Below are positions 2,755 through 62,536 of a stretch of DNA of 64,000 nucleotides, one piece after another; the stretch's first letter is position 1; each line of letters begins with the position of its first letter. The DNA comes from Nemertoderma westbladi. Lineage: Eukaryota; Animalia; Xenacoelomorpha. Made by a program: the position numbers and the translations under genes. The stretch covers positions 1 to 64,000 of the forward strand of contig JAUCBJ010008373.1 in the NCBI GenBank assembly GCA_032718475.1, written 5' to 3'. The notes beneath the pieces were generated by a model that searched no databases, was not told the DNA's origin, and was given only the letters and a program-made list of their open reading frames with translations.

Positions 2755-3877
2755 TGTAAAGGCTTTTGCGGATTTAGCTGGTTATTTTCCCCGCAAAGTA
2801 CTCTGTAGGTGTTTTAGCGGACATAAAAAGCCGTTTCCTTACTGTACACGTGTTTTAGTGGACATAAAAAGCCATTTCTTCTGTATGTGTACTTTAGCGG
2901 ACATAACTAGCAATTTTATGCCGCAATGCACCAAAATACTCTTAATACAGTGTAGTTCAGATGACGACATCTATCAGCTGAGATGTCGACGTGTAGCTTT
3001 TGGCTTTCTTTGTTCAGGCTCAATCACTCGACCAATCAGAGCGATTTTCTTTTTATTTGTACAGAAGCCTCCGGGAAATCGCGCAATGCATTATGGTTTA
3101 TGTTTACCTTTTTTCCTAAGCCCAGAACACCGGCTGTGGAATGATTCTGTGTTTCAGACTTTAGCCAAACATTAGAACGGCTTTGATCATAGAAACGTAT
3201 AACTGTTATCGCAACAAACCAATCCAAACCAAATCTGCATATCACAAACTGCTCATATTGTCACATACAAACACCGCATTATTTTTACTGCTATTTACTG
3301 TCGATTATTAATTGTATCAGTTGATGGAATATTGTTATATTTGGAGAATATCGATAAATAATCAGAAAACCCCAATCTTCTTGATATACTGAAGGTTAGA
3401 GACCGGTTACATATAGCAATTGCGACTTACATTATAGTGGTTTTGGAGTGAATTGAATGCTATTTCATAGACCCTACATTTGTCAGTGGCTGTTCTCCTT
3501 AGATATGGTTAAAATTAGTGAAGGTCGGCAGATCGGAGTGCAGCATTGTGCGGTAGTGTGCATGAGTGTGATAGATAACAAAGCATCTCCTAAAGAATGC
3601 GCTTTATACGTGAATCATTAGCCATCCCATTGTGTTTAGTGTAAGTCATAACTCTGTTTACATACTTAGAGCGCCACGTCCTAAAGGAACTGTTAATATT
3701 TCCTGAAAGTGAATAATATTTGTCAGAGATTATATATTAACAATCAATCGAATAATACAGTAGGCCTACACCGCAATAAGGTCAGAGCATCCGAATCCAG
3801 TCTCCCTTAACCGTGGGTGAATGGTCGCGCATAGGCTGGCTTCGGCTAATGTAGCTTTATGTGTATCAAATACTTGT
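2755..3877 (+). repeat. 5' LTR of BEL/Pao element, 3'-truncated (last 80 bp and PBS missing)
   Basis: Matches 22093-23215 with ~11 substitutions by eye, and homology stops at ATACTTGT. Contains three TTTAGYGGACATAA direct repeats (2811-2910). Confidence 0.9.
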
Positions 3878-5826: not shown

Positions 5827-8800
5827 ATGTCTGACACAAAGCAAAACCTGTCAGTCAGTCTCCTAGATACAACCATCTGTGACCCAGATAGGAGTGCTGA
5901 ACGTTTGAGACCGAAGTTCAACTCACCTCCTACTGTAAGAAAGATCATCCCTCCAGTAGTAGTATCAGACCCTAGGCTAGTCAAACACCGTAGGTCCATC
6001 ATAGGCACTCGGGCTCAAGTCAAGCGGGACCAAGAAGCAGCTGTTAAACAGCAGCAACACGCGAGCCGAGAACTTATTTCTCAGCGGCCCGATAGCTCCA
6101 GTAGTTCAGATACTGTAGAGCTGACACCCGAGCGTGGAGCAAAGATGGCAGATGCGGTTTATTCAGATCCCCTTCTCATTCTTCCTGCAGCCGTACTCAA
6201 CAGGGTATTGATTGCGGTGGAGGAACACCAAATCGATTGGGCGAGAAGTAAGCGATCGACCAAGGATAGTTATGTGGGATACACAAGGGAGGAACTGAAG
6301 TCTATTGTCGAGTCACAATGGAACTTCCCCGGACCCGGACTCCCGTTTGACTTATCGGAAGCTGCCTGGGAAGACATACACAGGATGGGAGTGACAAAGG
6401 ATATTAGTGATCCAGCTGTATGGAAGAGGTCGGCAGCAGGATACGTACAGAGATTCTTCAGCTCTTTGGAGCGATTAGAGGAACAATTGTTTCAACAACC
6501 CCAAGGACCTCAAGAGCAGGGAGAGCTGCTTTATCAAGTTAGAGAAAGAATTCTAAGAATCAGACTAATCCTATCGGCCTTTGAGGAAGCTTCGAAAAGA
6601 AGACAAGACACGTCGTTGCAAGTTGCCGTAAAGACTTGGTTCCAGCGGGTGGGTCTCAAGGTTCAAGGAACAGCCCAGTGGAAATCTCAGCTGGCTGAGC
6701 GCTCAACCCATGGAGAATCAACAGACGCTACCTTTTCTCAAGTGGAAAGCGAAGCGACAGCAGAGAAACCGCAGAAGAGGGACGCTATTGACATCTATCT
6801 GTCAGACTATCAACGATTTCTAGGTGATGAAGAGTTGAGGAGACGGCTGGCTGGACTTCGCCCTAATAGTGAAGGAGCCAAGCTTGTGTTGGACGCAATA
6901 GATGCGGAAATGTTAGCTGCGAACCAAGCTAAATTTGATGAACACCTCCGCATCGCTAGAGTCCAAGAAGAACAAGTAAAGAAAAAACGTGGCAGAAGCA
7001 GCGACAGCGGCAGAAGTTGAAAGAAAAGCGGCAGCGGCAGCGGCAGCGGCAGAGGCAGAGGCAGAAGCGGAAAGAAAGGCGGTAGAAGTGGAAAGAAAGG
7101 CGGTAGAAGGGGAAAGAAAAGCGGCAGTGGCAGCGGCAGAAGCGGAAAGAAAGGCGGTAGAAGTGGAAAGAAAGGCGGTAGAAGGGGAAAGAAAAGCGGC
7201 AGTGGCTGCGGCAGAAGTGGAAAGAAAAGCAGCAGAGGCAGTGGCAGAAGCAGAACGGAGAGCGTTTGAAGAGACCACCCAACTAGAGTTGGAAAATCTT
7301 CAAGAGAATCAAGACTACATAAATAAACAGTTAACAGCTAGTCAGATGCAGATGATAAGTCGATCTACTCCCAAAAGGCAGGGATTTACATCATCTGATG
7401 AAGGCGATACTACCGATCCTGAAGGCGGAGGAAATAGATCTCGTCTAAACAGGCGTAGAAGAATGCCCCACCGTCAGAAATTGCCTGATTTGCCCCCAGC
7501 TGTGAGAAGGCAACTAGCTAGCACGGACTTAGGTAGTACAGAACCCACAGACCAAATTATTAGAGTAAAAAGACTCCCAACTATAATAGATGAGCCTGAA
7601 ATAATTAGGCCTGTTCTCGAAGCCACCCCCTCTGTGATAGAGACCCCTGTACTTCCAGAACCCAACTCTAAATTCCCTTTGCACAGCACTAAACTACTTG
7701 TGCCCAGCAGAACAGCCCCTGAGACAACTCCTGTCCTGGACTCCGAGCGAAATATCAATGACTTGTCGCCCGTTGTCCCTCGTCCGCCCGCTACTATGTT
7801 GGCGGCTCCCGCTTCGGCGGTCGAGTGGGTGGATGAGAGACGGCGGGGGATGGATCTCCTGCTCGGGCAGATGCAGGAGACTGTTCAACAGTTCAAGGGC
7901 ACAGTAAGGGAAAGTAGGTTAGAGTTGTAAGAAGTGCAGCAAAGTATCGCGTTAGAACGCAATAAATTGGTAAATACTCAAAGGGGTATACCACCAACCC
8001 CGGTAACAATGTGTCAACCTGTTAGGTCTGAAGTATTTCATGCGCAAGGTGTGGAGCCTACACGCATCTATACTGCTAGTGAAGTAGAAACTCCTATAGT
8101 AAACCCTATTAAGGGTAATTATAAACCTGTAGACAATGATATTCCATATAGACCTGATCATAATCCGAGAAATTTATATACCGATAACTCGATATTAAAT
8201 AACACGATGGCCCAAGAAAGTTTTACACGTAAATGGCTAGAACCGAAGCCCGTCAAGCGGTAAAGGTGGGAGAGATCGTCAAGTTCAATGGAGATGAGAT
8301 GAAATGGTTACCTTTTAATGAATATTATAAAGATATCATACAGAACTCTGTGCTATCTAACGGAGAGAAACTTAGATTCCTCATCGAGTGCTTGGAAGGA
8401 TCTCCCAAGTTAATGGCGTTAAAGTTTATTGGACATCCAGATGGATTAAGACAAGTTTGGGATACACTAAACATCAGGTATGGTAATAGGAATAACATAG
8501 CTAGGTATTTGTATGCAAAATTGGTAGCGCCCCGAAAGTTCATTAGCAGCGGGATTATAGAGTTTTCCGATGAGATCCAGGAGATCTGTAGACAATTAGA
8601 TTGGCTAGGTAAGTCTCATGAATATCAGAGTTCTATGGTTATTGGAGCCGTAGCATCTACTTTACCCAAGGGTGGAGTAGGTACACGCTGGGATAAGAAA
8701 GTGTTATATATGATGGAACAACAACGACGAGACCCTACCATGGCTGATCTCATGTCATTCTTAGTTGGAGAAGTAAAATTACAGCTCCTAAAGCAGTCCA

Positions 8801-11800
8801 GGGAGAAGACACCGGAAAATAAGGTAAGTGAGAAACCCGTTTCTAGGAGAAAGGTAACACCAGTGTGTTATACAGACGATGGCAAAAGCCAGGCCTCTCA
8901 AGAGGAAGACAGCGGGAAAGACACTGAAAGATCTTACTATGTCAACAAAACGTCTAAAGACGTAAGTAAATTTAAGTCTCGAACCCATGACAGGAGAGAA
9001 CAGGTAAGAAAAACTCCTCCTACGTCTCCTAAGAGAATTCACGGAAGAAAGCCCGAGGAAAGAACGAGTGTGCACAACGTTACCCAAAGTAAGGTAAGTA
9101 ACATCAAACCGAAATGTGCGCTGTGCGACGGGCCCCACCGTTTAAGTGTGTGTGATGAATTCCTAAAGAAATCATTAAAAGATAGACGTGAAGTCATGTG
9201 GGATAAGCGGTTGTGTTATAATTGCCTCAGACAAGGACACCAACGGCGAACCTGTTACTCCGACGCAAGGTGTGCAAAGTGCGGCGCGAAACATCATATC
9301 TTGTTGCACACTGAATTCGAACGAAACAGCCCGAGTCAGGTAAGTGAGTCCGAACTATATGTCCAATTCAGTGATGTGAACGACACTGACCAAAGTTCTG
9401 AGATGGAAGGATTCTATACGGACGAATTCTCCGACGAAAACGAATCCTGTTACCTAATAAATACCGCAGTGTATCGAGCACTTACGTATGAGAAAGAAAC
9501 CGACAGTGAGCTCCCCCTAACTACTCCTGACCGACAACCATCTTGGAAAGCACCAACTTCCAATGTAGGAATCCGAGAATTTCCCGTAGTGCAGTTGAGA
9601 GTCCACGGGCCTGACAAGAGTTATATAGTGAACGCCCTCCTTGACTCCGGCAGCACAGGAACATTCATCGACAAAGAACTAGCCGAAGACATCTTTGCTG
9701 GACAACCCAAGTTCCGAACTAAGTTAAACATGTCAGGAATTATGCAGGTTTGGAAATCTACAGTAATTGCAGATTATTATGTAGGTGCGTTGTCCACCCC
9801 CCAGGATGAACTAGGAGAACACAGCATAAGGTCAGTAAAAATGGTGGCGATAAAGAACTTCGCTACCAGCCAAGTAGAACCTTATAACTGGGATGAGGAC
9901 GATTTCACCCAGCAGCATAAGATACCTAGATTCAATACAGACTATCCTGGAGTGCAAATACTCATCGGCCAAAATGTGCATGAGGCGCTTGAGACATTGG
10001 AGAAACGGCCTGCTCAACCGCAACCACTACAAACCTATGCGGGAAAAACTAGAGTAGGTTGGTACTTTACTGGCCCTTCCCGTAGAACTCTCATGGAAAG
10101 GTTACCCAAAGAGCGGGTCTACCAGGTAAGTGAATGGGAAGAGGAGAACAGTGAGGTAGATAATGATGACATCTACCAACTCTTCGACGAGGAGAAGACC
10201 ATCGACCTCCTTACGGAAAACGAAACTTGGCAAAACCAAGTGAACCTATGTCACCTCATTCATCCAGCTGAACAAGTGTACAACGACGAACTGAATGAAG
10301 TGATAGATCGCTACAACGCAAAGACTCGCGTTGAACACGCCGTACGATTCTTTACTCAAGAGGCTGTAGAGCCCAATTCCTACGATAAGGCCCTATCGGT
10401 AGAAGAAGAAAGAGCCAAGCAGATCCAGGAGACAACTATACGTTTTCTTAAAGATCAAGGTAGATATGAAATTGGTCTGCCATTTCGAAAGCGAGAACCT
10501 AAATTTATAAACAACCGACCATTGGCGGAGAAAAGAATTGCGCAACTACATCGACGCCTTACGGCAAATGCTTCAGCTAAGGAAATGTACAAGACTCAGT
10601 TGAAGAAAATTATTGACAAGGGATATGCGGAGCGAGTACCGGAATAAACACCCATAACTGAGAGAACGTACTATCTAACACATCATTACGTTCCCAAACC
10701 CGGTAAACCCAACGAAGTCCGGGTAGTATTTGACGGCTCCGCCCTCTACATGGGCCAATCCCTCAATTCCGAGTTGTTGCCAGGACCCAACTTACTCCAA
10801 TCCTTGTTGGGAATACTCCTAAGATTAAGACAATATTCAATCGCTTTCGCCTCTGATATAGAAGGCATGTTCTTACAAGTTAAGGTGCTGGATAAGGATC
10901 GAGACAGCCTACGATTTCTGTGGTGGCCTGAGGGAGACCTCAACCAGAAACCGGTGGAGTACTGGATGACCATCCAGGCTTTTGGGATCATCTCGAGCCC
11001 TTCAAACGCCTGCTCAGTAGTGCTTACCACTGCTGATGACAACCGGGACGCCTTCTCCAAAGAGGTTGTTGACAACATCAAACGGGATATATACATGGAC
11101 GACAATTTAAAGTCCCTCCCATCGGTGGAAGAAGCCATTGATGTCGCCAAAGGAACGGTAGAGTGCTTGAAAAGAGGTGGATTTCGATTAACTAAATTCA
11201 CCAGCAACTCCCGTGAGTTTCTGGAATCGATCCCGGTAGAAGACCGAGGAGTTAAAGATCTAGACCTAATCAAGGACGATCTTCCAGAAACCAAGACGCT
11301 TGGTTTGAAATGGGACACGGAGAGAGATATCCTGTTTTTCCAGCTAAAACAGCGAGATAATCCAGTTCGGACTAAACAGATTTGTCTAAGTATCCTGAGC
11401 ACTTATTTCGATCCATTGGGATTTATTAGCCCAGTTATATTGATTGCTCGGAGTTTAGTACAACAAATGTGGCTTGAAAACCACTCATGGGACGATCCAC
11501 TTAAGGGAGAACTATTAAAGAAGTGGATGAAATGGGAAGATTCTCTACCATCCATCGAGAACTTTATAATTTCCCGTTCATATTTTGGTCACATTCTCCC
11601 TACGTATTCCTATCAACTCCATGTGTTTGGAGACGCCAGCGATATGGGAATAGGTATAGTAGCCTACCTGAGAGTTGAAACTCCGGATGGAATTAAGGTC
11701 GCCTTGGTTACCTCTAAGGCCTTGATAAACAACAAGTTGAAAGTTCCTCGAGCGGAGTTAAAGGCGGCTCTATACCCTACAGCCATCGGCCGGAATGTAA

Positions 11801-13977
11801 CAGAACAGATCGACTATCCACTGGAAAAAACTGTCTATTGGACCGATGCTTTACTCGTGTTAGAGTATATAACCAATGAAGTCTGTCAGTTCATCGTCTC
11901 CGTTACCAACAGAGTAGCCATTATACTTAGTCGCACGAAGATAGACCAATGGAGACATTGCCCCAGGACGATTAATCCAGCCAACATCGCCTCCAGGGGA
12001 GCAACTCCACAAGAACTGATAGATACTCCAGACTGGTTAGGTGGACCCGACTTCCTAAGCAAAGAAGAGGATGAATGGCCTCCTCATCTTACTACGGCTG
12101 AGATTAGACAAGCCAAGGGAGCGGAGAAAGTCAAACCTTAAACCTGGGCGAGTAAATCGAAGTTATTTAAACCCGCGATAGATCTGTCTGTACTACAAGT
12201 TTCCGGAGACGATGCTTTGGATCCACAATTCCCCTCCACAAATAAGTCTGTTGTGGAAATGAGAGAGATAGATTGGAAATCTGGAACGAAAGACGTCTCG
12301 CAGGGACTCTCACCACTTCTGCAGAGAGCGATACATCACTATAGTTCCTGGAATCGGCTCTGTAAGGCCGTTACATATTTAAAGCGATGTTTTCATCATC
12401 ACTACTCCAGGACGAAGACCACTAGTGATACCGCTCCACTGACATCTGCGCAGGTCCATGTTGTTAAAGATCTTCCCAAATACAAGATATCCGACAGGTT
12501 TCTGAAGGAGAAGAGCAGTTACCAGGAGCATGAAGAAACCAATAAGCAGATACTGAGACTCCTGCAATGCTATGAGGATTCCGATAAGTATTTCCTGTTG
12601 TTGAGAAATCCACAGATGCGCTTAAGGGATCGTTTCTCTAGCACAATGATAGATGGGTTAATACGTGTTGGAGGAAGACTAACTAATGCTCCATTATCCT
12701 TTGACACTAAGTTTCCCATACTCATTAGAAATCTTGAAATACAAATCAAGATGATTGTAGATGTTCACAGTAAGCTTTATCATGCTGGTAGAGAACGAGT
12801 TCTTAGCGAAATTCGAACTCGCTATTATTTTTATAAACCCCGTAGAGCTCTGAACCAAGTTCTTAGGAACTGCATACCCTGTAGGAAAGCATTCAGTAGG
12901 CCTTTAACACAGCGAGAGGCAGAATTACCTAGGGAACGAGTAAGCTTCTATGAACCACCCTTTACTAATACCGGTGTGGATTTATTTGGCCCTATTGAAG
13001 TATATCGTGCTAGGAATATAGTCAAGAGATGGTGTGTCATCTTTGTCTGTATGACTTGTAGAGCTATCCATCTCGATATGGTGAACGATTTGTCTACCAA
13101 TAGCTTCATATTGAGCTTACGCCGACAGATCGCTCGCTTTGGAACTAGTAACACGATGAGATCTGATAAGGGAACAAACTTCATTGGTGCCAACAATGAA
13201 ATCAGGGCTTACGTCAAAGATTGGAACCAAAGACAGGTGGACGATCAGCTAAGGGTAACAGCGTCTAGCTGGACCTTCAACGCCGCCGACGCCCCTTGGT
13301 GGGGAGGAAGTTGGGAGAGATTAATCAGAAGTGTGAAGACAGCATTTCACTTTATAGTGCCGTGCCGCGCGTATCTCACCGACGAACTTTTGCGGACATT
13401 AATGGAGGAAATCGCCGCCTATCTCAACGAGAGACCGCTTATGCCAGTCTCATCGAGTCCCGATTCCCTGGAAGCGCTAACACCCGCGCACTTCCTACTG
13501 AAGAAACCTGTAGCCATGCTCCCACGATCGGAAATCACGGACGGAGACGAATACTGCCGGCAAACTTGGCAACTTATGCAGTTGTTATCCCGTCGTTTCG
13601 CTGACCATTTCGAAAAACATTATCTGCCCACGCTACAACTTCGAACTAAGGGGTTTGCGCAGCAAGAAAACGTCAGCGCTGGAGACATGGTCCTTATTGT
13701 GGATTCAGATCTTCCACGTAAGCGGTGGCAGACAGGTCGCATCATCGAGACTCATATCTCGGATGACGGTTTAGTGCGATCGGTAGAACTCGGCGTCATG
13801 CGACGTAACTTTAAGAAACCGGGAATTGTCTTCGAGACGCAGCAGCTCAATCGCCCAGTTGGTCGTTTATGTTTACTGGAAAGAGACAGAGAACTCTCCG
13901 GAAACTATGGAAGGCAAGATACTCTTCCCACGACCACCTCCCTAATCCAGCAAACATCTAGGGACTCCCCAACGTAA
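5827..13977 (+). pseudogene. BEL/Pao gag-pol polyprotein, disrupted (frame changes ~6980 and ~8240; in-frame stops at 7928, 10645, 12139)
   Basis: DUF1759-like gag (VKFNGDEMKW), triple Cys/His knuckle (CALC..H..C, CYNC..GH..C, CAKC..HHILLH) and protease ALLDSGS. RT motifs YLTHHYV..VRVVFDGS (read through the stop), DIEGMFLQV and YMDD. Pao RNase H LHVFGDAS. Integrase HxGR/CIPC, GVDLFGP, SDKGTNF, PWWGGSWERLI. Confidence 0.93.
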
Positions 13978-14134: not shown

Positions 14135-16203
14135 ATAACTCCAACTGGGGGCCATAGGGCCACTCCTTAATAATTAAGATATAAACTAGTACATTAACTA
14201 TCGAATAATAATAGAACAAGAGAAGCATGTTATTAATAATATCTATTAATTGTTAGAAAAATCCGATGCAAAAAATTACACGGCTCCAATATAATGACCA
14301 TTATATATATCTTGTTGGATATTTGTTTGCAATACATTTCTATAGGAAAAGTACATAACACAAAACGACCACAGGGCCACCTAATTTTTCTGGTAATTTT
14401 TGTGTAATTTACACATCAAAAACACATTCTAGAACTCAGATCTTTTCCGAAAATGCTTTGTTAGACTTTTCTACACCGTTTTTATTCATTTCAAAACTTA
14501 TGTATATTTTAATATATTATTTTATATATCTTTGATTCCACGACTAACTTGTAGGTATTTGAACCAAGATGGTGGCTTATCTAAGACAAAGTTGAAAAAT
14601 TAGTAAGTGTGAATTAAAAACTTTGTAATTAAATTTTGGTATCGAAATTTTTATTGGAGCTATTTGATATCATTAATGCAGATGATCCTCTTTGTGCTTG
14701 CAGTCAAATACCGTATTATTAAGTTTTTATTACATAAAACCATGACATAAAAAATAGTGGCCCTATGGTTTTGACGGATCTTTATTATAACAGATATATA
14801 GATTTCACCTTTAGAGTTCACCTTTCACCTATTGATTTTTTATACACCAGAGGGACTAGAACAAATGAATCAATTATAATTGAATTGTATAATCGGCGTG
14901 CTGTATTTTTTTTAATTAAAATTCTACATTTATGCTACTTTCTAATAGTTTTTTTTATTTCGCTCACTGAATAGAATGTGTACGGAATAGAACGCTCACT
15001 GAGTATAACGCTCACTGAATAGAACGTTGACTGAGTATCATGCTCACTGAATAGAACACTCACTGAATATAATGCTCACGGAATAGAACGATCACTGAAT
15101 AGAACGTTAATTGCGTGGAACGCTCACTCAATAGAACGTTGACTGAGTATCATGCTCACTGAATAGAACACTCACTGAATAGAACCCTCACTGAATATAA
15201 CGCTCACTGAATAGAACACTCACTGAATAGAACGCTCACTGATTATAATGCTCACTAAATAGAATGCTCACTGAATAGAACGCTCACTGAATATAACATT
15301 CACTGAATATAACGCTCACTGAATAGAACACTCACTATATAGAACACTCACTGAATATAATGCCCACTGAATAGAACGCTTACTGAATAGAACGCTCACT
15401 GAATATAACACTCACAGAATTGAACATTCATTGAATAGAATGCTCACTGAATATAACATTCACTGAATATAACGCTCACTGAATATAACACTCACTATAT
15501 AGAATGCTCACTGAATATAACGCTCACTGAATAGAACGCTCACTGAATATAACACTCACAGAATTAAATATTCATTGAATAGAATGCTCACTGAATAAAA
15601 CACACACTAAATAGAACACTCACAGAAATGAACACCCACTGAATAGTACACCACTAAATAGACACTCTCTGAATAGAACGATAATTGAATAGAACACTCA
15701 CTGAATAGAATACTCACTGAATAGAACGTTCACTGAATAGAACGTTCACTTAATTGAACACTCACTGAATAGCAAGTTCACTGAATAGAACGCTTACTGA
15801 ATAGAACACTCCCTGAATAGAACGTTCACAGAATATAACACTCACTGAATAGAACGCTCAATGAATAGAACGATCGCTGAATAGAACGCTCACTTAATAG
15901 AAGGCTTACTGAATTTTTGAAGATAATCAGCTTTAAATAGAAATAAAACTACTGTATTATGAAAGAACCTAACAGCGCAGGGGTTAATAACCACCACTCA
16001 TAGGACCTAAAGATGCAACACCTAATGTCCAAAGGACCTTATAACGCCTTACAACTACTTCATACCATAGGGCCACTGTGGCCCCATGGCATGATTAAAC
16101 CATAGGGCCACCTTTCCGACCATAGGGCCACTGTTGGATATTGAATAGAACCATAAGGCCACCTACTGACATCCATAAGTGGCCCTAAGGTTGTGTGTTG
16201 GAT
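14135..16203. mobile_element. Probable non-autonomous DNA transposon nested in the BEL element
   Basis: Imperfect TIRs (TCCAAC...TAGGGCCACT / AGTGGCCCTA...GTTGGA), TA-rich flanks, repeated CATAGGGCCAC subterminal motifs, no coding capacity. Confidence 0.55.
14962..15912. repeat. 16-bp minisatellite (CTCACTGAATAGAACG)n, ~55-60 copies
   Basis: Directly visible degenerate tandem array. Confidence 0.95.
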
Positions 16204-17759: not shown

Positions 17760-20700
17760 ATGACTGAGTTGATAGAAGATGATCTTGGTATTAGGGAGCG
17801 ATATACTCTACCTTTACAAGCGTTTGTTGATAGCTTGATACGCGGCGACGCTAGTCCAACTACTACGGAGGACGATGGTCGTTATATCGAACCGCCAATG
17901 TCCCAGGAGCAACTCACTCGTGAATTGGACTATAGAAAATTCACAGCTCGCTATACACATCGTAATGGTACGTATATGGACTTCTTAACTACCGGCCATC
18001 CTATCGATTTACACGATACGGACGATGTAGACACCGAAAGGGAAATGGTTTTATTTAAATATCATACCCAGCGGAGTCGGAACGATAAACCGAGAATAGA
18101 ACATGAGAATTCTATTCGGAACCGACTCGAAAGAGAAGACGTTGAAGAGCCGGATAAACGCAGCGACTTCAACGATTATCTGGAATTCGTGAGAGAAACA
18201 TATCTCAATATTGCCAGTCAACAATATTTAGAAACTCGATATCCTCAAGGTATACATCATGACCCTATGATAGAACTCAAACGGCTCTATTTCACTATGA
18301 TGTATCTTACCGCCGATCGACCGCTACCTGTCGTCCCAGATAGCTTCGAACAGATGGAGGAATATTGTAAAACTGGAGAACGATCACCCGCGTTTCCCCT
18401 GCAGGACGTGCGTCTTTGGTATTACTGCGACGAATGCCCTAGACCCAATCAGCAAACGGAAAGACATAAACTTCCGCGGAGATGTTGCGCTAAACACAGT
18501 TTTACACGATATACTTATGGGAGTTTCGAGCGAAACCTGTTCGATGTATCACCTACGCTTGCTCGACTCAAACGATCCTTAAATAAACCAATGATCAGAG
18601 TTCCGGAATACTCGGTCAGACCTCCTCATTCCTTAGTGAGACCTCAAACGCTTGATCCTAATAGTATAACGGATCCCCCTGAACTGTACTCACTATTTAA
18701 AGATCTTGTGTTACCCGAACAGTTAATCGGTGGCACTCCGGTAGTAGGCTCGCTAGATATTCGCCCTTCCTACCTAGCCGGATTGGGACGCGGGCATCTA
18801 ATATCGCCGTTCAACCCGTACAATCGTCCCGGTTTAACCCCGATACAACCCGTTACCGAAGTCGAGGAGAGCGTTGTACGAAACGCGTTAGACGCTATTC
18901 AGCAGAAGATCGGAAAAGGAACTTACGATTGTTTAGAGAAACGCAAATTGCAGCAACAAGTCCAAGCGGTGAAAGAATTAGCTTTACCCCAGTTAGATCG
19001 AGAAATCCAGAACCTCGAGGAAGACATCGAACGTGGACGAACCTATTCTCTGCAAGAGTTCTTAGACGAGCGTTTACAACAACAAGCGGAGGAAAATCAG
19101 CTCAAGGAGAAACACATAGAAATGGATGAGAGAGAAGAAGCAGCTTTAGCCCAGCCAGAAGCTCAAATCCTTATGACTGATTTATATTCTAAAACCATCA
19201 TCCATCCTTCGATGGTTCCCCATTTCGGAGACAAACTCTTCGCCACGGCACAACCTCAACCGGTTGATATCAACCTAAGATCTCGAGATCTTATCGCTGA
19301 CGCTCCTATGTTGCAACGTCTGCCAATCGAGGCCGCTCGTGTCGACGGTATACTCGTTGAACCTCCGGACAATAGAGCGGATCTTGTCCGTCGTATGGTA
19401 CACGAGGTCAACATATGCGCTAGACCTTTACCGAACTCATTTTATGGAATCAAAGATCCCCCTTATTATGTCAATCTAACTCAATATTATATGGTAAAAC
19501 CGGAAGATCCTACACATAGTCTAAGGTTTCTACCACTAATAAATCCTCTCGATCTTGTCGAACTCGAACAACTGCAGAAACATCTGGATCAGTTAGTGAA
19601 AGTAAACTCATTCCGAAAACCCTACAATGTTTCCAGAATAGAGAAAGATACAATACCTCCGTATAATCTCGATGGATTTATCAAAACTCGATTAGTCCAC
19701 TGGAATCTCGACGTGTTATTCGAGGAGGAAAGAATACAACGATATGGAGATGTAGAAACATATACTTCACAGTATTTGAAGTATAGAGATCTACCTAATG
19801 CTAGCGAATGCGCCACCTTGTGGCATCCAGTGGGAATGACTCTAGAAAATGCCACTAAAGAGTGGAACGAGACTCTTAATGTTATCGAGATGTATGGAGT
19901 TGTCACTTACGATAACGAAGGCAGCGTTCCGGTTGGAGAACTGGGGACTACGCGCATGATACATATACGAGGACCAGCTGGTTCCACCCACGTATTTACT
20001 CGAGCGTGTTCCGATGTGATTGATTATTCTTTTGAGACTCTAACCTTAGATACAAAAGAAACTCCGACATGGACAATTCGAACTCGCGCAGCGTTACGTC
20101 ACTGACACCGAGCGCAAACCGGCCATGGGTATCGATGGATCGATGTTACCTCAGCCCGTGCTCGAGATGTTGTTTAACGAAAGCATCCTTAAAATCGGCT
20201 CAGCTGTTTATGGAGTTCTCCAAAACGACTTTAGGAACATGGAGAATATCCCATATCCTTTCGTAGATACTCAGCTGATTGCTCCCTGGGCAGAAGGCCG
20301 AGGTTTCTTCCGAACTATGTATGCCAATACACCCAGCGGCATCACTAAAGTACAACGAACCTCCATCGGACATCTTGCCTTTCGAGAATATGGATGGAAT
20401 TTCAAGGTTGGAAATCCTATCAACTACCAACAAGTATATAGAGATCATTATTCTCGATTATACTTTGACGGACACTTGACCGCACCTGGTGCAGTGTATA
20501 GCTTTATGAGTGTTCCACTTCGTCCCTCCTTAGCTATATACACGATCTTTGAAAACGCCGCACTTGCCGGTTGGCTAGCCGATGTGTGCAGTCGTACTAT
20601 ACGCGCCCATCCCTTAATACTTGGAACCAAACTCACCAAGCTAGATGAACACAATAAATTAATCCGCTTTGAATGTTTCAGGCGCTTTCTGACTCCGTTC

Positions 20701-22014
20701 CGTAACGTTGATAGTCAGTTCAAGGACCGCGCTCTGACTAAGCTCAGCCTAAGAGACTCAGCTGCTGAGAAGTTAGACAGCGCTGGATTCGCCATTGTCA
20801 AGGACGTTTGTATACAGAACTTACATTCCTCTGTTATACAAAGACCCCGAATACCCACGGGTTATTCTATCGTGGAAGTTCAGACAATGGGTTCACTTGA
20901 GGAGACAGCCGCACCTACATCAGCTATGCAATTGGAAGACGAACCAATATGCTTAGAATCTGAGGAGATTCAGCCTACAGCGCCCCGGAGCAGCGACAAC
21001 GACTACGTCTTGGAATGGTATCAAGGTCCACAATGTCTCACCGCATACGATTATCGGCACGCCAACTATGTTTCTCGAAAACGTTGCCGATTATGCGCAT
21101 CGAGAGATCATTTCACCCCCATGGACTCAGACGTACCCTGCTCCTATTTCCATGAACAACCGATGATGGAGATCTATTGTGCATATTGCAGATTCAATAA
21201 CTTGCACATTTTCGCAGTCTGCCCCCAATTTATGACTCAATGCCATCATCGTCAACTTAAATGACATGCCAGTTTTGATTGCCCTTTTAACCGCGATCTA
21301 GAGAGCGTAGATGAGATGATTACCCTGCGCTACATCAGAGCTTGGGAAGCGAATGCGGATTTACATTGTGAGTCACACCATCGCTATTACCCTGGACGCG
21401 CCTACGAAGGAGTTTACGCGTTCCATCCTTATCTATTCGCGTCTGTTGAACAAAAATCACGCACACCGAGTTACGAACTAATGAAGCGTGTTGGTGAGTG
21501 TATTTCCACCAAATTTGTTCGTAAATATCTCAGGAACATCAATCCTAACGATATTAATTCATACAACTTGATCACTTTCATCCGTCAAGACCCGGAGTAT
21601 GGCGATTTGTTTATCAACTCGCATCCAGAGTTACAGGAAGTACATCGACGGCCCTACGAATATCGAGCCCGAGAATGCGAGTTAGAAAGAACCATTAAAC
21701 CGAGGAAGTTTCTCACCACTCACGGTCCACCTACCGCTATTGTTCAGACGACTCGTCAGGGACCAGTAGGAGCTGCTGTCCTAAAACGCGCTCTAAAAGC
21801 CGTTAGACCTCGCTCCACTGAGGTTGATATCGATCAACCAGGTACCTCTACCAGTGGATACACCGACCGTAATCCCAAACCTTCCGATGCAATTGTATTG
21901 CACCCTTCATCCAGGAGTTATAGCCCTCCTAGTAAAGTGGCTCGCCCCAAAGAGAAAAGGACTCTTGCTAGCCTCAAAAAACTGCGTAAACGCCGTCCTC
22001 GCAAGAAAGACTAA
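17760..22014 (+). pseudogene. Accessory ORF (~1400 aa when repaired): coiled coil + DEDDy-like 3'-5' exonuclease fold + CCHC zinc knuckles + basic tail
   Basis: ORFs 17760-20105, 20125-21264 and 21316-22014 join through one +1 shift (~20050-20100) and one in-frame TGA (21262) that sits inside a knuckle (QCHHRQLK*HASFDCP). Exonuclease-like motifs VVTYDNEG, LPQPVLEMLFNESILKIG, FVDTQLIA, SIGHLA..YG..FK, LT....YSFMS. No signal peptide or TM segment seen. Confidence 0.75.
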
Positions 22015-22081
22015 CTGTTTAGAGTATTCTTATATTTTAGAAACTGTGATTTTTTATATTTTATAGAATTAAATCCCATTT

Positions 22082-22092
22082 TCTGGGAGCGG
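22082..22092 (+). promoter_or_regulatory. Polypurine-tract-like primer site of BEL element
   Basis: TCTGGGAGCGG directly abuts the TG of the 3' LTR. Confidence 0.7.
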
Positions 22093-23295
22093 TGTAAAGG
22101 CTTTTGCGGATTTAGCTGGTTATTTTCCCCGCAAAGTACTCTGTAGGTGTTTTAGCGGACATAAAAAGCCGTTTCCTTACTGTACAGGTGTTTTAGTGGA
22201 CATAAAAAGCCATTTCTTCTGTATGTGTACTTTAGCGGACATAACTAGCAATTTTATGCTGCAATGCACCAAAATACTCTTAATACAGTGTAGTTCAGAT
22301 GACGACATCTATCAGCTGAGATGTCGACGTGTAGCTTTTGGCTTTCTTTGTTCAGGCTCAATCACTCGACCAATCAGAGCGATTTTCTTTTTATTTGTAC
22401 AGAAGCCTCCGGGAAATCGTGCAATGCATTATGGTTTATGTTTACCTTTTTTCCTAAGCCCAGAACACCGGCTGTGGAATGATTCTGTGTTTCAGACTTT
22501 AGCCAAACATTAGAACGGCTTTGATCATAGAAACGTATAACTGTTATCGCAACAAACCAATCCAAACCAAATCTGCATATCACAAACTGCTCATATTGTC
22601 ACATACAAACACTGCATTATTTTTACTGCTATTTACTGTCGGTTATTAATTGTATCAGTTGATGGAATATTGTTATATTTGGAGAATATCGATAAATAAT
22701 CAGAAAACCCCAATCTTCTTGATATACTGAAGGTTAGAGACCGGTTACATATAGCAATTGCGACTTACATTAAAGTGGTTTTGGAGTGAATTGAATGCTA
22801 TTTCATAGACCCTACATGTGTCAGTGGCTGTTCTCCTTATATATGATTAAAATTAGTGAAGGTCGGCAGATCGGTGTGCAGCATTGTGCAGTAGTGTGCA
22901 TGAGTGTGATAGATAACAAAGCATCTCCTAAAGAATGCGCTTTATACGTGAATCATTAGCCATCCCATTGTGTTTAGTGTAAGTCATAACTCTGTTTACA
23001 TACTTAGAGCGCCACGTCCTAAAGGAACTGTTAATATTTCCTGAAAGTGAATAATATTTGTCAGAGATTATATATTAACAATCAATCGAATAATACAGTA
23101 GGCCTACACCGCAATAAGGTCAGAGCATCCGAATCCAGTCTCCCTTAACCGTGGGTGAATGGTCGCGCATAGGCTGGCTTCGGCTAATGTAGCTTTATGT
23201 GTATCAAATACTTGTGATAGGCTAAAGTCGATTTATAACCTAGAAGACACCTAAATTTGGCAGGTTAAACTGCTAAAGGTCTAAAAGCGCGAACA
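22093..23295 (+). repeat. 3' LTR of BEL/Pao element (1203 bp, complete)
   Basis: TGTAAAGG...GCGAACA followed by TSD CTTGC. Confidence 0.95.
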
Positions 23296-30674: not shown

Positions 30675-30895
30675 TGTTAGAGTAACCAATATGTAATTTA
30701 ATCAGATTAATTATATTGATTAATTATAATATACAACTGATTAGTCAGCTGTGCAGTAGGAGATAATTGTATGTTACACAGCTGTGCAGTTAGAGGTAGT
30801 AGGACAATATGCATAACGATGAAGAAGAATTAATTAATATATGAACTATAGTAAACTACAGTAATTGTTTTCTGATCCTGTGAGTAATCCTCACA
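30675..30895 (+). repeat. Gypsy 5' LTR
   Basis: Identical to 35552-35772. Confidence 0.95.
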
Positions 30896-30897
30896 TT

Positions 30898-30910
30898 TGG
30901 TGACCCAGCG
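30898..30910 (+). promoter_or_regulatory. Primer binding site, tRNA-Trp-like (TGGTGACCC)
   Basis: Starts 2 nt after the LTR. Matches the reverse complement of the tRNA-Trp 3' end for the first 9 nt. Confidence 0.7.
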
Positions 30911-30952
30911 ATTTCTTTCTTTTTTTTTAAATAAATTAGTTGCTATTGTCCA

Positions 30953-33900
30953 ATGTCTTTCACTGCTTACCGTAAGGCTGATCTGGCTGAAGTCCTCCAG
31001 CAACTGAACAGTTCTGATCCCAACTACTCGCTACCCGACAAGAAAGCCGACATGATCGATGAACTCAGCAAAGAGAATCCGGTCGCAATTAAGATTCTTC
31101 TGTCGCATATACAGAAGAGTCAAACGGTTCTACAGCCATCAGTACCTCATCCGCAAACACCACATTCGTATCCACAAAAGGTAAAACTACCCGAATTCTA
31201 TGAGAAAGACGCTAGAGTATGGTTCCAACAAGTGGAAGCCGTGCTTGAAGGACACCCAGCTGCAGCAATGAGATCCAATTTGTTGGCTGCTTTGCCAACA
31301 GAAACAATATTGGATGCTGGAGTCAACCTCAGTGATACTTTCGAGACGATTAAAGATAATATAATAAATCATTTGGCTGACAGCGACAACAAACGCCTGC
31401 GTAAATTACTTGCAGCTCAAGAGCTTGGTGACAGAAAGCCTTCAGCAGCCCTGCGGCAAATGCTGCGCCTAGCACCAGCAAATGAACAAATCGTACGTTT
31501 GCGTTTTCTAGAAATCTTACCATCCTCGGTCAGTATAGTTCTAACAACTTTGAGTGGTCTTTCACTGGAACAAATGGGTGATGTTGCTGATAAAATGATT
31601 AAGCAACAGGATTCCCAATCGTCAACTAGTTTATCCGCACCAATCCATCATCAGACTGAAATCAACATGCTCCAGGAGTCGCAAAAAATCCTTGTCCAAT
31701 CACAGAAGTCACTCGCTGATCAAATTTCGCAGATAAATACGCAACTAAGAGACCTCTCAACACGCCGAGATGGAGATCGTTCCCGTTCTCGATACAACTC
31801 ATCACGCTCTGGTTCTCGTTCAGCAACACCTCATCGTCAGCGCTCACATTCCCGCTCCCAATCTCGAGAATACAACCCAAATGGAGCCTGGTGTTACTAC
31901 CATTACACTTATGGCAGAGAAGCATCCACGTGTCGACCGCCCTGTTCATGGCGCAATCTAACAAACCGACGTTGTGGAAATCCAGGTAACTCTGACAGTA
32001 ATAATGAAAACAATAATACCGGTGGTAGTGATATTTGTAATATTCACGTAGAAGCTTTACCGGTAGGAGAATTTCTAATTGATTCTGGCAGTGGTTATTC
32101 TATATTACCCCAGAAATTCCAATCCCTTCTGAAAAATAAATCCCAGAATAATGTCCTGTTGAAAGCAGCTAATTATTCTGAAATACGAAATTATGGGAGC
32201 GGAATACTTGAATTTTATATTCCAACCCTTAGAAAGGAACCATTTACTTGGAATTTTATAGTGGCAGACGTAACACAACCCATTCTTGGAATTGATTTTC
32301 TCCGACACAATAATATCAATATTGATTGTGCGAGTAAACAAATATATTTCAAAACTCCAATGAAAATGTCGATTCAAAACGAAAACAATAAACCCAATAA
32401 AAAACAAGAACAACCCTCAAAAATCAGCAACCAGAATCAATCCAACTTTATCTACAGTACGACTTCTAACATGACCAGAACCCCACATATATTTTCAGTA
32501 ACTGGTGGCAGGAATTATCGTTTAAAGCTAATAGTGATGATTTTAATGATTCTCTCTATTTTTTACCCTTTAGCATATTGTGTTAGCAAGTTACCGTTAT
32601 CCATATTTGCCTTACCTTTCTTCTTTATATTTGGTACTGGTGCGATATTAGGTTTAACATTGGATTGTTTTACAATTGGTGATGAACTATTTGGTTATGC
32701 AGGACCGCCCAAAGTAGACATTAGTAGTAAATCGTCTGATTTTTGGTTTCCAATTTCAACTGTTTCAAGTAAGGAAATTAATAAGGAAATTTCAAGAGTT
32801 AACTTAATCAATTCAAATACCAAAACAAGGTTAAATAAATTGTTAAATAAGTATGATACTGTTTTCTCTCTGAGATGTAAAAACGAACCAGTAAAACATA
32901 ATATAGAACACCATATAATCACTAGCGGACCTCCGTGTTTTTCTAGACCGCGTAGATTATTTGGTGAAAAATTAACCGCCGCAACTTCCGATTTTAATAA
33001 TTTAGTTAAAAATAGCATTGCAGAACGCAGCGATTCGCCATGGTGTTCTCCGTTGCACATGGTACCAAAATCTGATGGTACTTGGAGAAATTGTGGTGAT
33101 TATCGTCGCTTAAATCGGCAAACTGTTTATGACTGCTATCCTATGCCAAACATAGCAGACATAAGCAATAACTTTAGGGGCTGCACCGTCTTTACAAAAA
33201 TAGATCTCGAAAAAGCTTTTTACCAAATTCCTATGGCGGATGATGACGTAAAAAAAAACTGCTATTACTACACCTTTTGGTATGTTTTGTTTTAAAAGAA
33301 TGCCTTTTGGTCTCAAAAACGCAAGCCAAACCTTTCAACGATTAATTGATACTGCTCTTTCAGGTTTACCTTTTGCTGTGGGTTACATTGACGATATATT
33401 AATCGCAAGCCCAAACGAAGAACAACATTTTAAGGACCTGGAGGCAGTACTAAAACGATTTGAGAGTTACGGTTTGAAAGCCAAAATATCAAAGTGTTCA
33501 TATTTTCAAACTGAAGTACAATTTTTAGGTTACGTGATATCTAAAAATGGCGTTTCCCCAAATCCATCCAAAATTCAAGCGATAAAAGAAGTACCACAAC
33601 CCAAATCTATTTCTTCATTGCGTCGATTTTTAGGAATGTGTGGATTTTACCACCGATTCATACCAAATTTTTCATTGATAGCTGCACCACTCACCGACCT
33701 CACTAGAAAAATAAATAAGTCCAAAAACGAAAATTTTGAACTTACTTTAGATGCGCAACTTGCCTTTAGCAATTTAAAAAGTGCTTTAGAAAAGTCAATA
33801 ACTCTGTCTTTCCCTTTGAAAGGAGCACCTCTAAGTATAACAACAGATGCTTCTTCCATTGCGTTAGGTGCAGTTATTCATCAGTTGGTTAACGGGAGAG

Positions 33901-35405
33901 CAGAGCCATTAGCTTTCTATTCTAGAAAATTAACAGCTGCAGAATCAAAAAAATCAGCTTTTGATCGAGAACTTCTTGGAATTTATGCAGCATTAAAACA
34001 ACACGATTGGTTACTTGGCCAAGAAATAACAATTTTTACAGACCATAAACCTCTTGTGCATAGTTTAACAATGAAAAATCCTTCGCCACAACAATCTAGA
34101 TGGTTATCCTACATTTCAGAGTTCACAAGTAAGATTGAACATGTTTCTGGTTCCGATAATATTGTGGCTGACGCCCTTTCTCGTCCTATATGTGCCATTT
34201 CATTCGACAATTTGGAAGAATTAGCCGACGCACAATCAGCTGATAGTGACTTACAATCATTTTTCCGCTCAACTAATTTACCTTTAAAAAGAGTGAAAGT
34301 TCTTGGCGACAAAGAGGTAGTTTACGATGACTCTACGCCCCATCTAAGACCATATATTCCGATGACATTAAGACGCCAAATTTTTGACAGTATTCACAAT
34401 TTATCCCATCCAGGTCCCAAAGAATCGTCACATTTAGTTACTGCTCGTTTTATATGGCCAGGTGTTAAAAAGCAGGTAAAAGTTTGGGCTAACGAATGTC
34501 AGCATTGCCAAACTTGTAAAATTACACGCCATATTAAAACTCCAATAGACACAATACCTACTTCATCTAGGTTAGACACCGTACATATAGATATCGTAGG
34601 TCCATTACCTCCATCCAATGGCTATAAATACTTATTCACAGCGGTAGATAGATACACCAGATGGCCCGAAGTAGTACCTTTAAGAAATATAACTGCAGAT
34701 ACAGTAGCTACTGCTTTCTTAAATTCTTGGATAAGTCGATTCGGTATTCCCCGCAAAATAGTTACTGACCGCGGTTCACAATTTGAATCAGCTTTATTCT
34801 CCGCCCTGATTTCACAATTAGGAATTGATCGCGCACGTACTACTGCATATCACCCTTCCTGTAATGGCCTTGTCGAACGATTTCATAGGAGTCTTAAAGC
34901 ATCACTTAGGGCAAAATGTTGCAGTAGAACATGGTTTAGAGAACTACCTTTAGTGCTTTTAGGTTTGCGATCCGCAATAGGAGTACATGGATTTTCTCCG
35001 GCCCAATTGATGTACGGAACTGAATTACTCCTCCCAGGTCAATATTTTCTACCTGAATCAAATACCTTAGACCAAACGTTGCCCAATTTTGTTGAAAATT
35101 TATTCCGTAAAGTTGATAAATTTAACCCACCAGAGAGAAAACATTTGACTAAATCATACCTTCCACAATCGCTTGAGAACGCTACACACGTGTGGGTTCG
35201 AGATCCTATTAAGCGATCTTCACTAAATCCTTTATACAAAGGACCTTACGAAATAATTAGTAAAACAGCGAAAACAGTCAAAATTAAAATTCATAAAGGT
35301 GAAGAAACATTGTCTCTAGATAGAATAAAGCCTGTAGTGAAACCTCAAAAATTAGACGATCGCAATAATAATGTTATTAAGAAAACAGTAAGTTTTAGGT
35401 TATAG
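30953..35405 (+). CDS. Gypsy gag-pol (gag, PR, RT, RNase H, integrase); single +1 A in homopolymer at 33250-33258
   Basis: WFQQVEA/LGDRKPS gag, FLIDSGS protease, SPWCSPLHMVPK..GDYRRLN, YIDD, TDAS..RELL..TDHKPL, HPG..CQHC, HIDIVGPLP, TDRGSQF, GPY. Removing one A restores VKKTAITTPFG. Confidence 0.92.
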
Positions 35406-35537
35406 TAATCAGTTATTTTTGAGTCTATTTCACTTTCAATCTCATTAGGTTCAGTCTAACTTTAATGAGCCTTTAATGATACTCTTGTTTATCTCATATT
35501 TAGTGTAAATATTTATTTAATAATGTGCTCCGCAATT

Positions 35538-35548
35538 AGGAAGGGGGG
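35538..35548 (+). promoter_or_regulatory. Gypsy polypurine tract
   Basis: AGGAAGGGGGG, 3 nt before the 3' LTR. Confidence 0.85.
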
Positions 35549-35551
35549 TCA

Positions 35552-35772
35552 TGTTAGAGTAACCAATATGTAATTTAATCAGATTAATTATATTGATTAA
35601 TTATAATATACAACTGATTAGTCAGCTGTGCAGTAGGAGATAATTGTATGTTACACAGCTGTGCAGTTAGAGGTAGTAGGACAATATGCATAACGATGAA
35701 GAAGAATTAATTAATATATGAACTATAGTAAACTACAGTAATTGTTTTCTGATCCTGTGAGTAATCCTCACA
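35552..35772 (+). repeat. Gypsy 3' LTR
   Basis: Identical to the 5' LTR and followed by TSD ATAGG. Confidence 0.95.
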
Positions 35773-37459
35773 ATAGGCTACTTGGAACTCCGATCGCTTC
35801 ACAAAAATGTCAGTATCGCGGCCGTATCCTGCGACCCCTTTAGCCACATAGAAACAACGGGTTCAGTCAGCTGCAAAACGCCCCCAATTAAATCTCGCTA
35901 ATTGAGCAACTGAAGTTGGCATTCCGCAATGGGAGGGAGTTCTCCTGGAGTGGGGGGTCGCGGTGGAACACCCGACAAGGGAAGTAGAATGGAGGTATTG
36001 TTGGTCAATGGTCGCAAGGAACCGCCAGGGACTTTCTTGTGCGGAATTCCCGCGGCTGCGCGGGACACTCTGGCCAATGTCAGAATGTTGAATACAAATG
36101 ACGGCAGTGCTTCCATAACTTAAACGGAGAGCCGTCATCTGCCTGCACTGCGTCGTGGTAGCGCGGCGATCCACTGATCTCGTTCGGCACCGACAGGAGA
36201 AATTTTCACTGCACGAACGTTCAGTAAACTGCAGAACTGTCTAGCTGTCTGTTTGTAGGTTAAGTATACTGGTATAATAAATCATTCTACGGTAGCAGTA
36301 CAGCTTACAGCAGTACTGCAGTATGAAATGAATGGACTTCGCTAGCGAAGTCGGATCAGGCAGTATGCCAGTCCTGTAGTATAGTAGTCCTTGTACGAAA
36401 CCTAATACAGTAATAACAGAATACGTTGTTCTGAAGGCAATAGGCCTATCGGTACGAATACTGTAAGTGAAGACTGAAGCATGCGCCCATGTAAAGAATA
36501 CCAGGATTGAATTTAAGATATTTCGTGCTGTAATTTTTTTTTTTTTTGGTTGACAAGTATTTATTTTTGGGGGAAAAATAATTGTTTTTGGGGGTAGAAT
36601 AATTGTTTTTGGGGATGAATAGTTGTTTTTGGTGAGAGGGATGTGTCCCATACTCAATATTTGGGGATGTGAATTGGGTCTACAAAAAATATATTAGGTG
36701 GAAAATAATTTATTTTCGTGTTAAATCATCTAATTTGGGGTGACATTCAATTAGTAGCGGTTGAAATACACTAGGGAAAAGAAAATACGCCCTGAGGAGT
36801 GAGAATACACGATCAGACGATAATGTAGCGTTAGCTCCAAATCGGTATAACCTTAGGCCCTGTGGCGTTAGGTACTGTAGCTTTAGGTCCTGGCGCAAAT
36901 ATCTGACTGGTGATTCTGTATTAATCTATTCTACAATATCCCTACCTCTCGTTTATTGTTTTGGTTCCTTTCAACTCGCCTCTGCCAGTCTGTAACCTGC
37001 TCCTTTACTAACCTGCCTGCCTGCCTGGTTTTGGATGTTGGAGGCAGACTGGACCTACTGACCTAATGGCACGGCCTTAACTGCCTAACGCTACCAGGAC
37101 CTAAAGTTACGGACCTAACGCTAACAGGACCTATAATGCCACGGACCTAACGCTACCATCAGGACTGCAGGACCTAATAGCCTAAAGCGCCAGGACCTAA
37201 CGCACTATAACCGAATACACTAGGTGCTAGGCAGCTAGGGAAATTTAACCGGGTCGAGTGATTTTGCATGGCGAGTGAAAATTCTCTGTTACACACCGGG
37301 TGTCGGTGATCTCTACTCAGCTACTCTATGGAAGGTTTTACGTTTTACCGTTCATCATCTAGCTAGCCGAGTACAGCAGTAGCCAGATACAGTACAGAGC
37401 TGCAGAGTGAGTCAGTCTGTTGGTGAAGTGTTCATTTATATTATTTTCATTTGTTAATT

Positions 37460-58978: not shown

Positions 58979-59102
58979 CTGCAGAGGAAACAATCGAGTT
59001 TAGGAATCGCATTTAGCCTCCATTAGATGCCTCCTAGGAGGCTGAGGTCACCCAAATGGTTGTATTAATTAATTTAACCCAAAATAGTACAGAGTAATTT
59101 TT

Positions 59103-59692
59103 GGTCGACTATAGAGTTGAAACAGTGAATTGTCACTGATCTCTGTTCTCTGGATTCTCCGGACGGTTTTTTGGTCTCTGTTTCCCGGGTATCCATCAGA
59201 GATCAGTGATTTTTTCAAATTAAAAAATATATATTTAACTTGTACGACATAAAATTAAAAATATAAGATTTTTTTTCACAAATATTTTTTTACTATGAAA
59301 TATTACAACTAATGCTTAATTTTAATTATTTTTAATACGCCGCTTCCATAAAATTATATATTAACTTTTACACTATGTTTAATCATGACTCACACTAACT
59401 GTACATGCAATCTATTTAATTAAAGGTGTGTTTAATTAAGATAAATTAACACCTAAAGATAATTCTTATTTAAGGATAAGGGTGCTTAATTTGATAATTA
59501 AGTTGATAATTTAAGTTGATAATTACGTACCTGTTTGTGCTATAGTCAATTAATTGAAAGTACAAATATGCCGTAAGCAAAGTCTCTGATCTCTGGCTCT
59601 GGTCTCCGGCATTTTTTAAAATAATTCTCTGGGTAGGTCTCTGGTTCACCGGCATTACGGAAAACAGGTCTCTGTTTCAATCTAGTCGACTA
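59103..59692. mobile_element. Degenerate MITE in RPA2 intron
   Basis: Imperfect TIR GTCGACTATAGAGTTGAAACAG / CTGTTTCAATCTAGTCGAC. Confidence 0.5.
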
Positions 59693-60097
59693 TAACATAA
59701 CTTATTTTATGGTCTACCAAATCATATTGTCTGGGTCACTAAAAACTGTTCAGGATTATATTAATATTAAATTTGCGGTAGAATTGTGAAAAAACAATTA
59801 CATCGCTCCTGTGAAAATGAGGAAACAAAGGGGGCAGAAATTTCATGCGAGAAAGACAAAATGATACGATATAGTAAAAAACAAAAAGGGTAATTTATAT
59901 ATATTTCCTAAAAATAAAGGATACGTTTGTGTGACGTGAACATTTTGGTTTTTAGGATTTTAGTGTTTAGGTTCAAAGGCGCAGTAGTAAAAACAGTTAG
60001 AAAGTCAGTTGAAGGCCCTATTATATAAACATGTTTTGAGTTGAGTTTTGAATGATTCTAAATTAGTGCTAGTTCTTAAGCTAAGCGGCCCTTTCAT

Positions 60098-60790: not shown

Positions 60791-61099
60791 AGCTTGCATG
60801 GATGAACAATGTCTTAAAAATGTTCGATAATAATAATTGGTAATAAAAGGCTTAAGTTAATTGAAACAAAGGTTTGCCAAAAAGTTTTTGGAGAAGTTTT
60901 TTGGACTTTTTGGAGATACTGGGATTTGGCGTAAATCCAAAGCCCTATAAATCCAATCTCCATAAAGTTTCATATCAAAACCCAGTATCTTCAAATAGTT
61001 TCATATCAAAACCCAGTATCAACGACTATGCCTCATTTAATGAGTAATAATTAAATTCTGGTAAATAGATTCCTGTTTTTTATTGGTTGGCTAAATTAA

Positions 61100-62370: not shown

Positions 62371-62536
62371 TTTCTTTTTATACAAAAAAAAAAATTGTGT
62401 GTAAAATCAACATGATCATTAAAATCTAGGATCGATTGCTTTCTATTGCGGAATATAGGTAGACTGTAACTTATATTCGTAAGGATTAATAGAGATCAAT
62501 AAATTAAATAAAACATAGAGAAATCATAAACCTTAC

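Follow-up and report, generated by a model that had tools for sequence, protein, structure and literature searches.

The third open reading frame (ORF3) of a 20.5-kb BEL/Pao LTR retrotransposon of Nemertoderma westbladi probably encodes a highly diverged DEDDy exonuclease domain of the WRN/EXD2-like kind, as judged from the sequence motifs that it contains, and its reading frames A and B, which are separated in the copy studied, are fused into one ORF in other copies of the family. At the family level, three of the four residues of the acidic tetrad are present. The copy studied lies in a window of 64,000 nucleotides (contig JAUCBJ010008373.1, positions 1 to 64,000), to which all coordinates refer; it is a decayed insertion and would yield no functional protein.

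The Host Element and the Layout of ORF3

The element is bounded by paired direct repeats of 1123 nt, which are 99.0% identical and align without gaps when the window is compared with itself (Table 1). Its gag-pol carries BEL-type Pfam markers in PR-RT-RH-IN order, with matches to DUF1759 (E 9e-12), Peptidase_A17 (E 4e-35), DUF5641 (E 5e-18) and Integrase_H2C2, a weak protease match (E 0.014) and a YMDD motif. A diverged LTR relative (78-79%) at 2-379 matches 22919-23295 and 3581-3877. This match finishes together with the 5' LTR but extends 80 nt beyond the point where the 3' LTR appears to stop, which leaves the true LTR boundary uncertain. The gag (5827-7930, +) has a long orphan N-terminal extension with an Ala/Glu-rich repeat.

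The window as a whole is repeat-rich, animal-like DNA. It also holds a Ty3/Gypsy-type element (30675-35772) with identical 221-nt LTRs and a gag-pol in two frames that overlap at 33252-33295, an unbroken 1002-codon ORF (37427-40435, +) with an aminotransferase class V domain and a PP-loop domain, and an RNA polymerase I second-subunit gene (56487-63140, -) in long unbroken coding blocks, between which are found a reverse-transcriptase fragment (61345-62181) and a 39-bp tandem array (60006-60929).

ORF3 ends 78 nt upstream of the 3' LTR. Frame B is +1 relative to frame A, and an in-frame stop at 21262 interrupts the third knuckle of the window copy. All motifs named in the first-pass annotation of this DNA, i.e., VVTYDNEG (19899-19922, frame A), LPQPVLEMLFNESILKIG, FVDTQLIA, SIGHLAFREYGWNFK, LTAPGAVYSFMS, CRLC, CAYC and KKLRKRRPRKK, are located where it had placed them. 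Its CCHC knuckles are indeed Cys/His motifs, but the first is a non-canonical CX2CX4HX9C and the second a CX2CX5HX4C; no canonical CX2CX4HX4C knuckle and no Pfam zinc-knuckle match are found in the window copy of ORF3, and zf-CCHC leads for the linker-knuckle part are weak (0.79, ESM Atlas). In other copies, the third knuckle has its second Cys and thereby the canonical CX2CX4HX4C pattern. The orphan N-terminal ~700 residues (17769-19856, +) contain a Cys/His cluster (CDEC...H...CC..H) and an acidic stretch that is probably coiled-coil, and have no library or Atlas match. ORF3 lacks membrane-like segments, its 19-residue hydropathy peaking at 1.19, so that an env identity is ruled out by the lack of a transmembrane anchor.

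Table 1. Features of the BEL/Pao element and of its ORF3 in the window copy
Feature	Position	Strand	Basis
5' LTR; starts with TG, 3' end uncertain	2755..3877	+	99.0% identity to 22093-23215
BEL/Pao gag-pol, five reading segments (stops and frame changes)	5827..13977	+	Pfam markers
16-bp tandem array, repeat family D1	14876..15900 (end approximate)	.	within 3.8-kb pol-ORF3 spacer
ORF3, ~1,410 codons (about 1,414, first ATG to final stop)	17769..22014	+	ORF listing
ORF3 pieces in window copy	17769-20045 (frame A); 20050-21264 and 21265-22014 (frame B)	+	
ExoI-like block VVTYDNE (D 19911, E 19917)	19899..19919	+	rank 1/1421 positions, 8.9 bits
Frameshift private to window copy	20044..20047	+	length difference in other copies
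LPQPVLEMLFNESILKIG, LP..L..LL...ILKIG block with ExoII column	20146..20229	+	rank 1/1370, 10.1 bits
FVDTQLIA, D-L/T block	20260..20283	+	rank 1/1418, 15.3 bits
SIGHLAFREYGWNFK, S-L block, weak	20362..20406	+	chosen by ordered chain, -0.6 bits
LTAPGAVYSFMS, ExoIII candidate 1, YSFMS (Y 20497, Ser at acid position)	20476..20511	+	
PLRPSLAIYTIFE, ExoIII candidate 2, YTIFE (Y 20539, Glu 20551 at acid position)	20515..20553	+	
Non-canonical Cys/His motif CX2CX4HX9C (CRLC)	21085..21141	+	motif scan
Tandem zinc-knuckle pair: CX2CX5HX4C (CAYC), then stop-interrupted knuckle	21178..21282	+	motif scan
Basic tail KKLRKRRPRKK, putatively NLS-like or RNA-binding	21976..22008	+	sequence
Short purine-rich tract preceding 3' LTR	22085..22092	+	sequence
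3' LTR	22093..23215	+	window self-comparison

The Probable DEDDy Domain of ORF3

A DnaQ-like match had been expected by the first-pass annotation, and, taken strictly, this expectation failed in all libraries searched. Pfam (up to E 10) and PDB sequences gave no match to the ORF3 pieces or to a read-through query, in which an X stands at the frameshift about seven codons 3' of the true break; NCBIfam and PHROGs returned nothing relevant for the ORF3 pieces, and NCBIfam nothing for frame B. No relatives of frame B were found among longer proteins (0/1778 candidates), and no frame B loci in viral and metagenome contigs; four matches of frame B to ABC transporters in plasmids were rejected as chance. 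The lone match of frame B among 1.84 billion protein representatives is an acidic repeat protein, which was rejected as a relative. In the ESM Atlas, the N-terminal 696 residues of ORF3 had no usable match and the linker-knuckle part had only leads at 0.81 or below, while a single-sequence AlphaFold model of the frame B part reached a pLDDT of 32.9, too low to use.

The motif blocks were evaluated with a custom PF01612 profile of 45, mostly bacterial, members at <55% identity from 187 domains; the PDB relatives of the bacterial EXD2-like seed are WRN-exo, EXD2, Rrp6, NrnC and a mut-7 homolog (7jw2). When the whole ORF3 was scanned block by block, ExoI, LP..KIG/ExoII and D-L, i.e., three of the five conserved PF01612 blocks, each ranked first of ~1,400 positions, in order and at the places proposed earlier. 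The LP..KIG/ExoII block stands at 10.1 bits vs. 0.2 for rank 2; the D-x-E of ExoI is present, and its lead over rank 2 is only 1 bit, which makes the ExoI block weak evidence by itself. The S-L and ExoIII blocks were not ranked first and both score below zero bits; a single-block scan leaves S-L outside its four best positions. At the ExoII column (codon 20215-20217), 43 of the 45 profile members have Asp, as do other copies of ORF3, and the window copy has Val. ExoIII can be read in two registers: that of the first-pass annotation, YSFMS, scores -11.7 bits (rank 45/385) and is penalised by one private change, whereas YTIFE scores better (-3.7 bits, rank 4/385), was picked by the ordered chain and ends in a Glu that would give a D-E-D-E centre.

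The ordered four-block chain of frame B scored 22.4 bits, which not one of 2000 shuffles equalled, nor did any of 243 windows taken from ORF stretches elsewhere in the window. By itself, the frame A chain gives a weak signal (9.4 bits, equalled by 129/2000 shuffles and 18/311 windows), and the sum of the two, with the frames scored apart, was reached by one shuffle in 2000. These block-chain p-values are optimistic because the blocks and wide gap ranges were picked after the sequence was seen, and ORF3 falls far short of the 57-126 bits that 14 family members, themselves part of the profile, reach on the B chain. By hhalign, native frame B aligned to a 62-sequence EXD2-like alignment in the expected register (P 0.0044, probability 7.9%) and the frame A piece in the wrong one (P 0.41). 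With hmmsearch --max, the 45-member profile gave ORF B the second-best score among 1084 six-frame segments (6.0 bits, E 0.36); ORF B was absent from the top 10 of a narrower profile, A1. When frame B was aligned with 40 EXD2-like proteins by MAFFT, both ends were mis-registered, and structure prediction from this alignment was not used since it would be circular.

The DEDDy likeness may have arisen by chance, with ORF3 being an unrelated orphan protein with zinc knuckles, which would agree with the negative library searches, the weak hhalign and hmmsearch scores and the unusable single-sequence fold; given the first-ranked ordered blocks, the shuffle tests and the Asp that other copies have at the predicted ExoII column, we consider this quite unlikely. 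The DEDDy domain of the first-pass annotation is retained as a remote homology, in which the custom profile recovers the ExoI, LP..KIG and D-L register but no library gives a match.

Other Copies of ORF3

Contigs from four DNA runs (X1-X4) of three studies, one of which runs may be the source sample, were aligned to 19700-22090, with 10,794 contigs in X1 and 4,655, 4,031 and 197 in the others. These thousands of contigs in several identity classes are taken to reflect a family with many copies, contig depth over ORF3 not being equal to copy number. A one-base length difference at 20044-20047 is found in 6116.5/6116.5 (X1), 14439.9/14439.8 (X2), 19448.3/19448.3 (X3) and 371/452 (X4) of crossing depth, and at 21262 each of the four runs has a sense codon instead of the stop in at least 99.8% of depth. 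The two breaks thus belong to the window copy, or its assembly, alone. The earlier proposal of one original ORF is supported by these copies, in which frameshift and stop are absent and the frames are fused; the frameshift itself exists but is located at 20044-20047, not at 20050-20100. A programmed +1 frameshift at this site is rejected, as other copies differ in length there. The window copy has a frame B stop codon right at the break, and matching depths among the 40 of 683 differences listed suggest that no less than 35% (X1) and 61% (X2) of depth lacks this stop.

At the ExoII codon, all covering depth in the four runs of the three studies differs from the window and encodes Asp by the standard code, which supports the DEDDy homology independently of the profile. 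The first-pass annotation had regarded ExoII as substituted, which is true of the Val in the window copy but not of the other copies, and its pseudo-nuclease argument consequently fails as far as it rests on ExoII. In other copies, the LT of ExoIII candidate 1 also follows a Pro, as in WRN, and no difference is found at either ExoIII acid position among the 40 of 683 differences listed. Loss of the tetrad, as in an EXD1/Maelstrom-type pseudo-nuclease, is not borne out for the family, which keeps three of the four acids. Calling a pseudo-enzyme from a single decayed copy is unsafe. On balance, we lean slightly towards a domain that retains metal-dependent activity, in which the fourth acid would be Glu or lost.

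Codon positions were compared for 38 of the 683 differences, namely the 40 listed ones, which were selected by the tool for support, less the two at the frameshift; variants with under 99% share in X1 were taken as shared and the rest as private to the window copy. Shared variants fall at codon positions 1/2/3 of the fused frame as 5/0/15 (15/20 third) and private variants as 8/6/4 (4/18 third), with a Fisher p of 0.003, which becomes 0.0025 at a 99.5% cut and is weaker, 0.10, at a 98% cut. Because the shared variants are mostly at third codon positions, the fused ORF3 frame has probably been under purifying selection in the family. Neutral decay fits the window copy and is consistent with the 1% LTR divergence and the stops in pol. 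In the final 150 nt of ORF3 and the pre-LTR stretch (21860-22090), contig depth is several times higher, and some contigs skip parts of ORF3, which suggests deleted or non-autonomous relatives.

Possible Functions of ORF3

We tentatively propose, at nearly an even chance, that ORF3 is an RNA-binding protein with a DEDDy domain and knuckles that works on RNA 3' ends in its own particle. This proposal is supported by the DEDDy ORF3s of the bdelloid rotifer LTR elements Juno and Vesta and of Terminons, which are described as having intact DEED residues and for which 3'-end processing is proposed, their function being undemonstrated in that account (Rodriguez, Kenefick, Arkhipova 2017; PMC5408684). 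The ORF3 of the family likely encodes a single protein of ~1,410 residues, located in the cytosol or nucleus. With its DEDDy domain and zinc knuckles, this protein would bind RNA of the element itself and would likely trim or remodel RNA 3' ends inside the element's ribonucleoprotein particle. By analogy, its substrate may be the element's own genomic RNA, primer tRNA or cDNA ends.

Alternatively, the domain may trim or sequester host piRNAs or siRNAs, or mimic Nibbler, mut-7 or EXD1, and thereby weaken the silencing of its family, a possibility that builds on the silencing roles of Nibbler, mut-7 and EXD1. Such a counter-defence seems unlikely to us: mut-7, Nibbler and EXD1 share the domain class, the seed has the mut-7 homolog 7jw2 as one of its PDB relatives and related copies of the family are numerous (10,794 contigs in X1), but the likeness detected is to the whole DEDDy class rather than to its silencing members, by a mostly bacterial profile, and the rotifer DEDDy ORF3s are described without clear tracking of copy number (PMC5408684). 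An active Nibbler/mut-7-like 3'-5' exonuclease that combines a D-E-D-E centre with tandem knuckles and destroys or trims host piRNAs is rather improbable; if true, it would be a retrotransposon-encoded enzymatic suppressor of small-RNA silencing.

ORF3 could also be an Egalitarian-like RNA adaptor that carries the RNA of the element into germ line or nucleus and for which catalysis is dispensable. Egl is reported to bind RNA via its exonuclease-homology domain with dispensable catalytic residues (PMC13186709), and ORF3 possesses knuckles, a basic tail, an acidic helical stretch and an ExoIII candidate 1 without acid. The ExoI D/E of the window copy, the ExoII Asp of other copies and the absence of a LOTUS-like or other Egl domain in Pfam searches of ORF3 speak against such an adaptor, which we regard as very unlikely.

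By analogy with the ExoN of nidoviruses, ORF3 might finally be a proofreading or cDNA end-processing exonuclease that acts beside the reverse transcriptase and helps maintain an RNA genome of 20 kb. The element measures 20.5 kb, and 40-kb Terminons, which are covered together with Burro elements in PMC6431247, carry DEDDy ORFs too; the WRN/PolA branch works on DNA, and the DEDDy domains of Dada transposons are proposed to act on DNA 3' ends (PMC3706591). However, the large planarian Burro elements are described in PMC6431247 without such a domain, and ORF3 is an ORF separate from that of the reverse transcriptase, so that proofreading appears highly improbable, and a protein working on RNA 3' ends remains our preferred reading.

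Comparison with Known Systems

The DnaQ-like domain is described as a well-known accessory domain of LTR elements (PMC6338049), and the comparison of LTR-element DEDDy ORF3s with mut-7, EXD1 and Maelstrom was already published in 2017 (PMC5408684). In the literature outside Repbase and subscription papers, where most matches were judged by listing, no BEL/Pao element with a DEDDy ORF3 was found. The principle of a DEDDy ORF3 in LTR elements is already known, and what is new is probably the BEL/Pao host, the size and the domain set. What DEDDy ORFs do in retroelements has been an open question ever since their description in low-copy rotifer families, and the BEL/Pao case would be a further DEDDy capture, in a different superfamily. 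The abundance of the family, its signs of selection and its three or more retained catalytic acids open the way to tests of activity, of substrate and of any influence on piRNA silencing.

Unlike Juno and Vesta, which are of the Ty3/Gypsy type, the host of ORF3 is BEL/Pao, and its ORF has ~1,410 codons, a 700-residue orphan N-terminal part, a knuckle pair and a basic tail. The ORF3 domain, which is set beside the rotifer ORFs by description, is also far more diverged, with no library match. Like the DEDDy ORFs described in Juno, Vesta and Terminons, ORF3 is an extra DEDDy-like ORF downstream of pol without a transmembrane segment, and a Cys/His motif, as in ORF3, is noted for Vesta2 and Vesta5; the rotifer tetrad is DEED and the rotifer families are low-copy, whereas the ORF3 family has many copies (PMC5408684).

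ORF3 shares the order and spacing of ExoI, LP..KVG-ExoII and D-L with WRN-exo, EXD2 and bacterial EXD2-like PF01612 proteins (2e6l, 2fbt, 6k17), and its ExoII column aligns gap-free to the WRN-exo/EXD2 branch. It differs from them in a ~45-residue insertion before the LP block, a longer loop after the D-L block, the lack of a clear ExoIII YxxxD and scores under any library cut-off. The ExoHD of Egalitarian, EXD1 and mut-7/Nibbler belong to the same domain class and use it on RNA, but their flanking domains are not detected in ORF3, and the similarity detected shows no closer kinship of ORF3 to them than to other DEDDy members. Dada elements likewise carry a transposon-borne DEDDy exonuclease domain, but they are DNA transposons in which this domain, with four catalytic residues, is described as inserted within the DDE transposase (PMC3706591).
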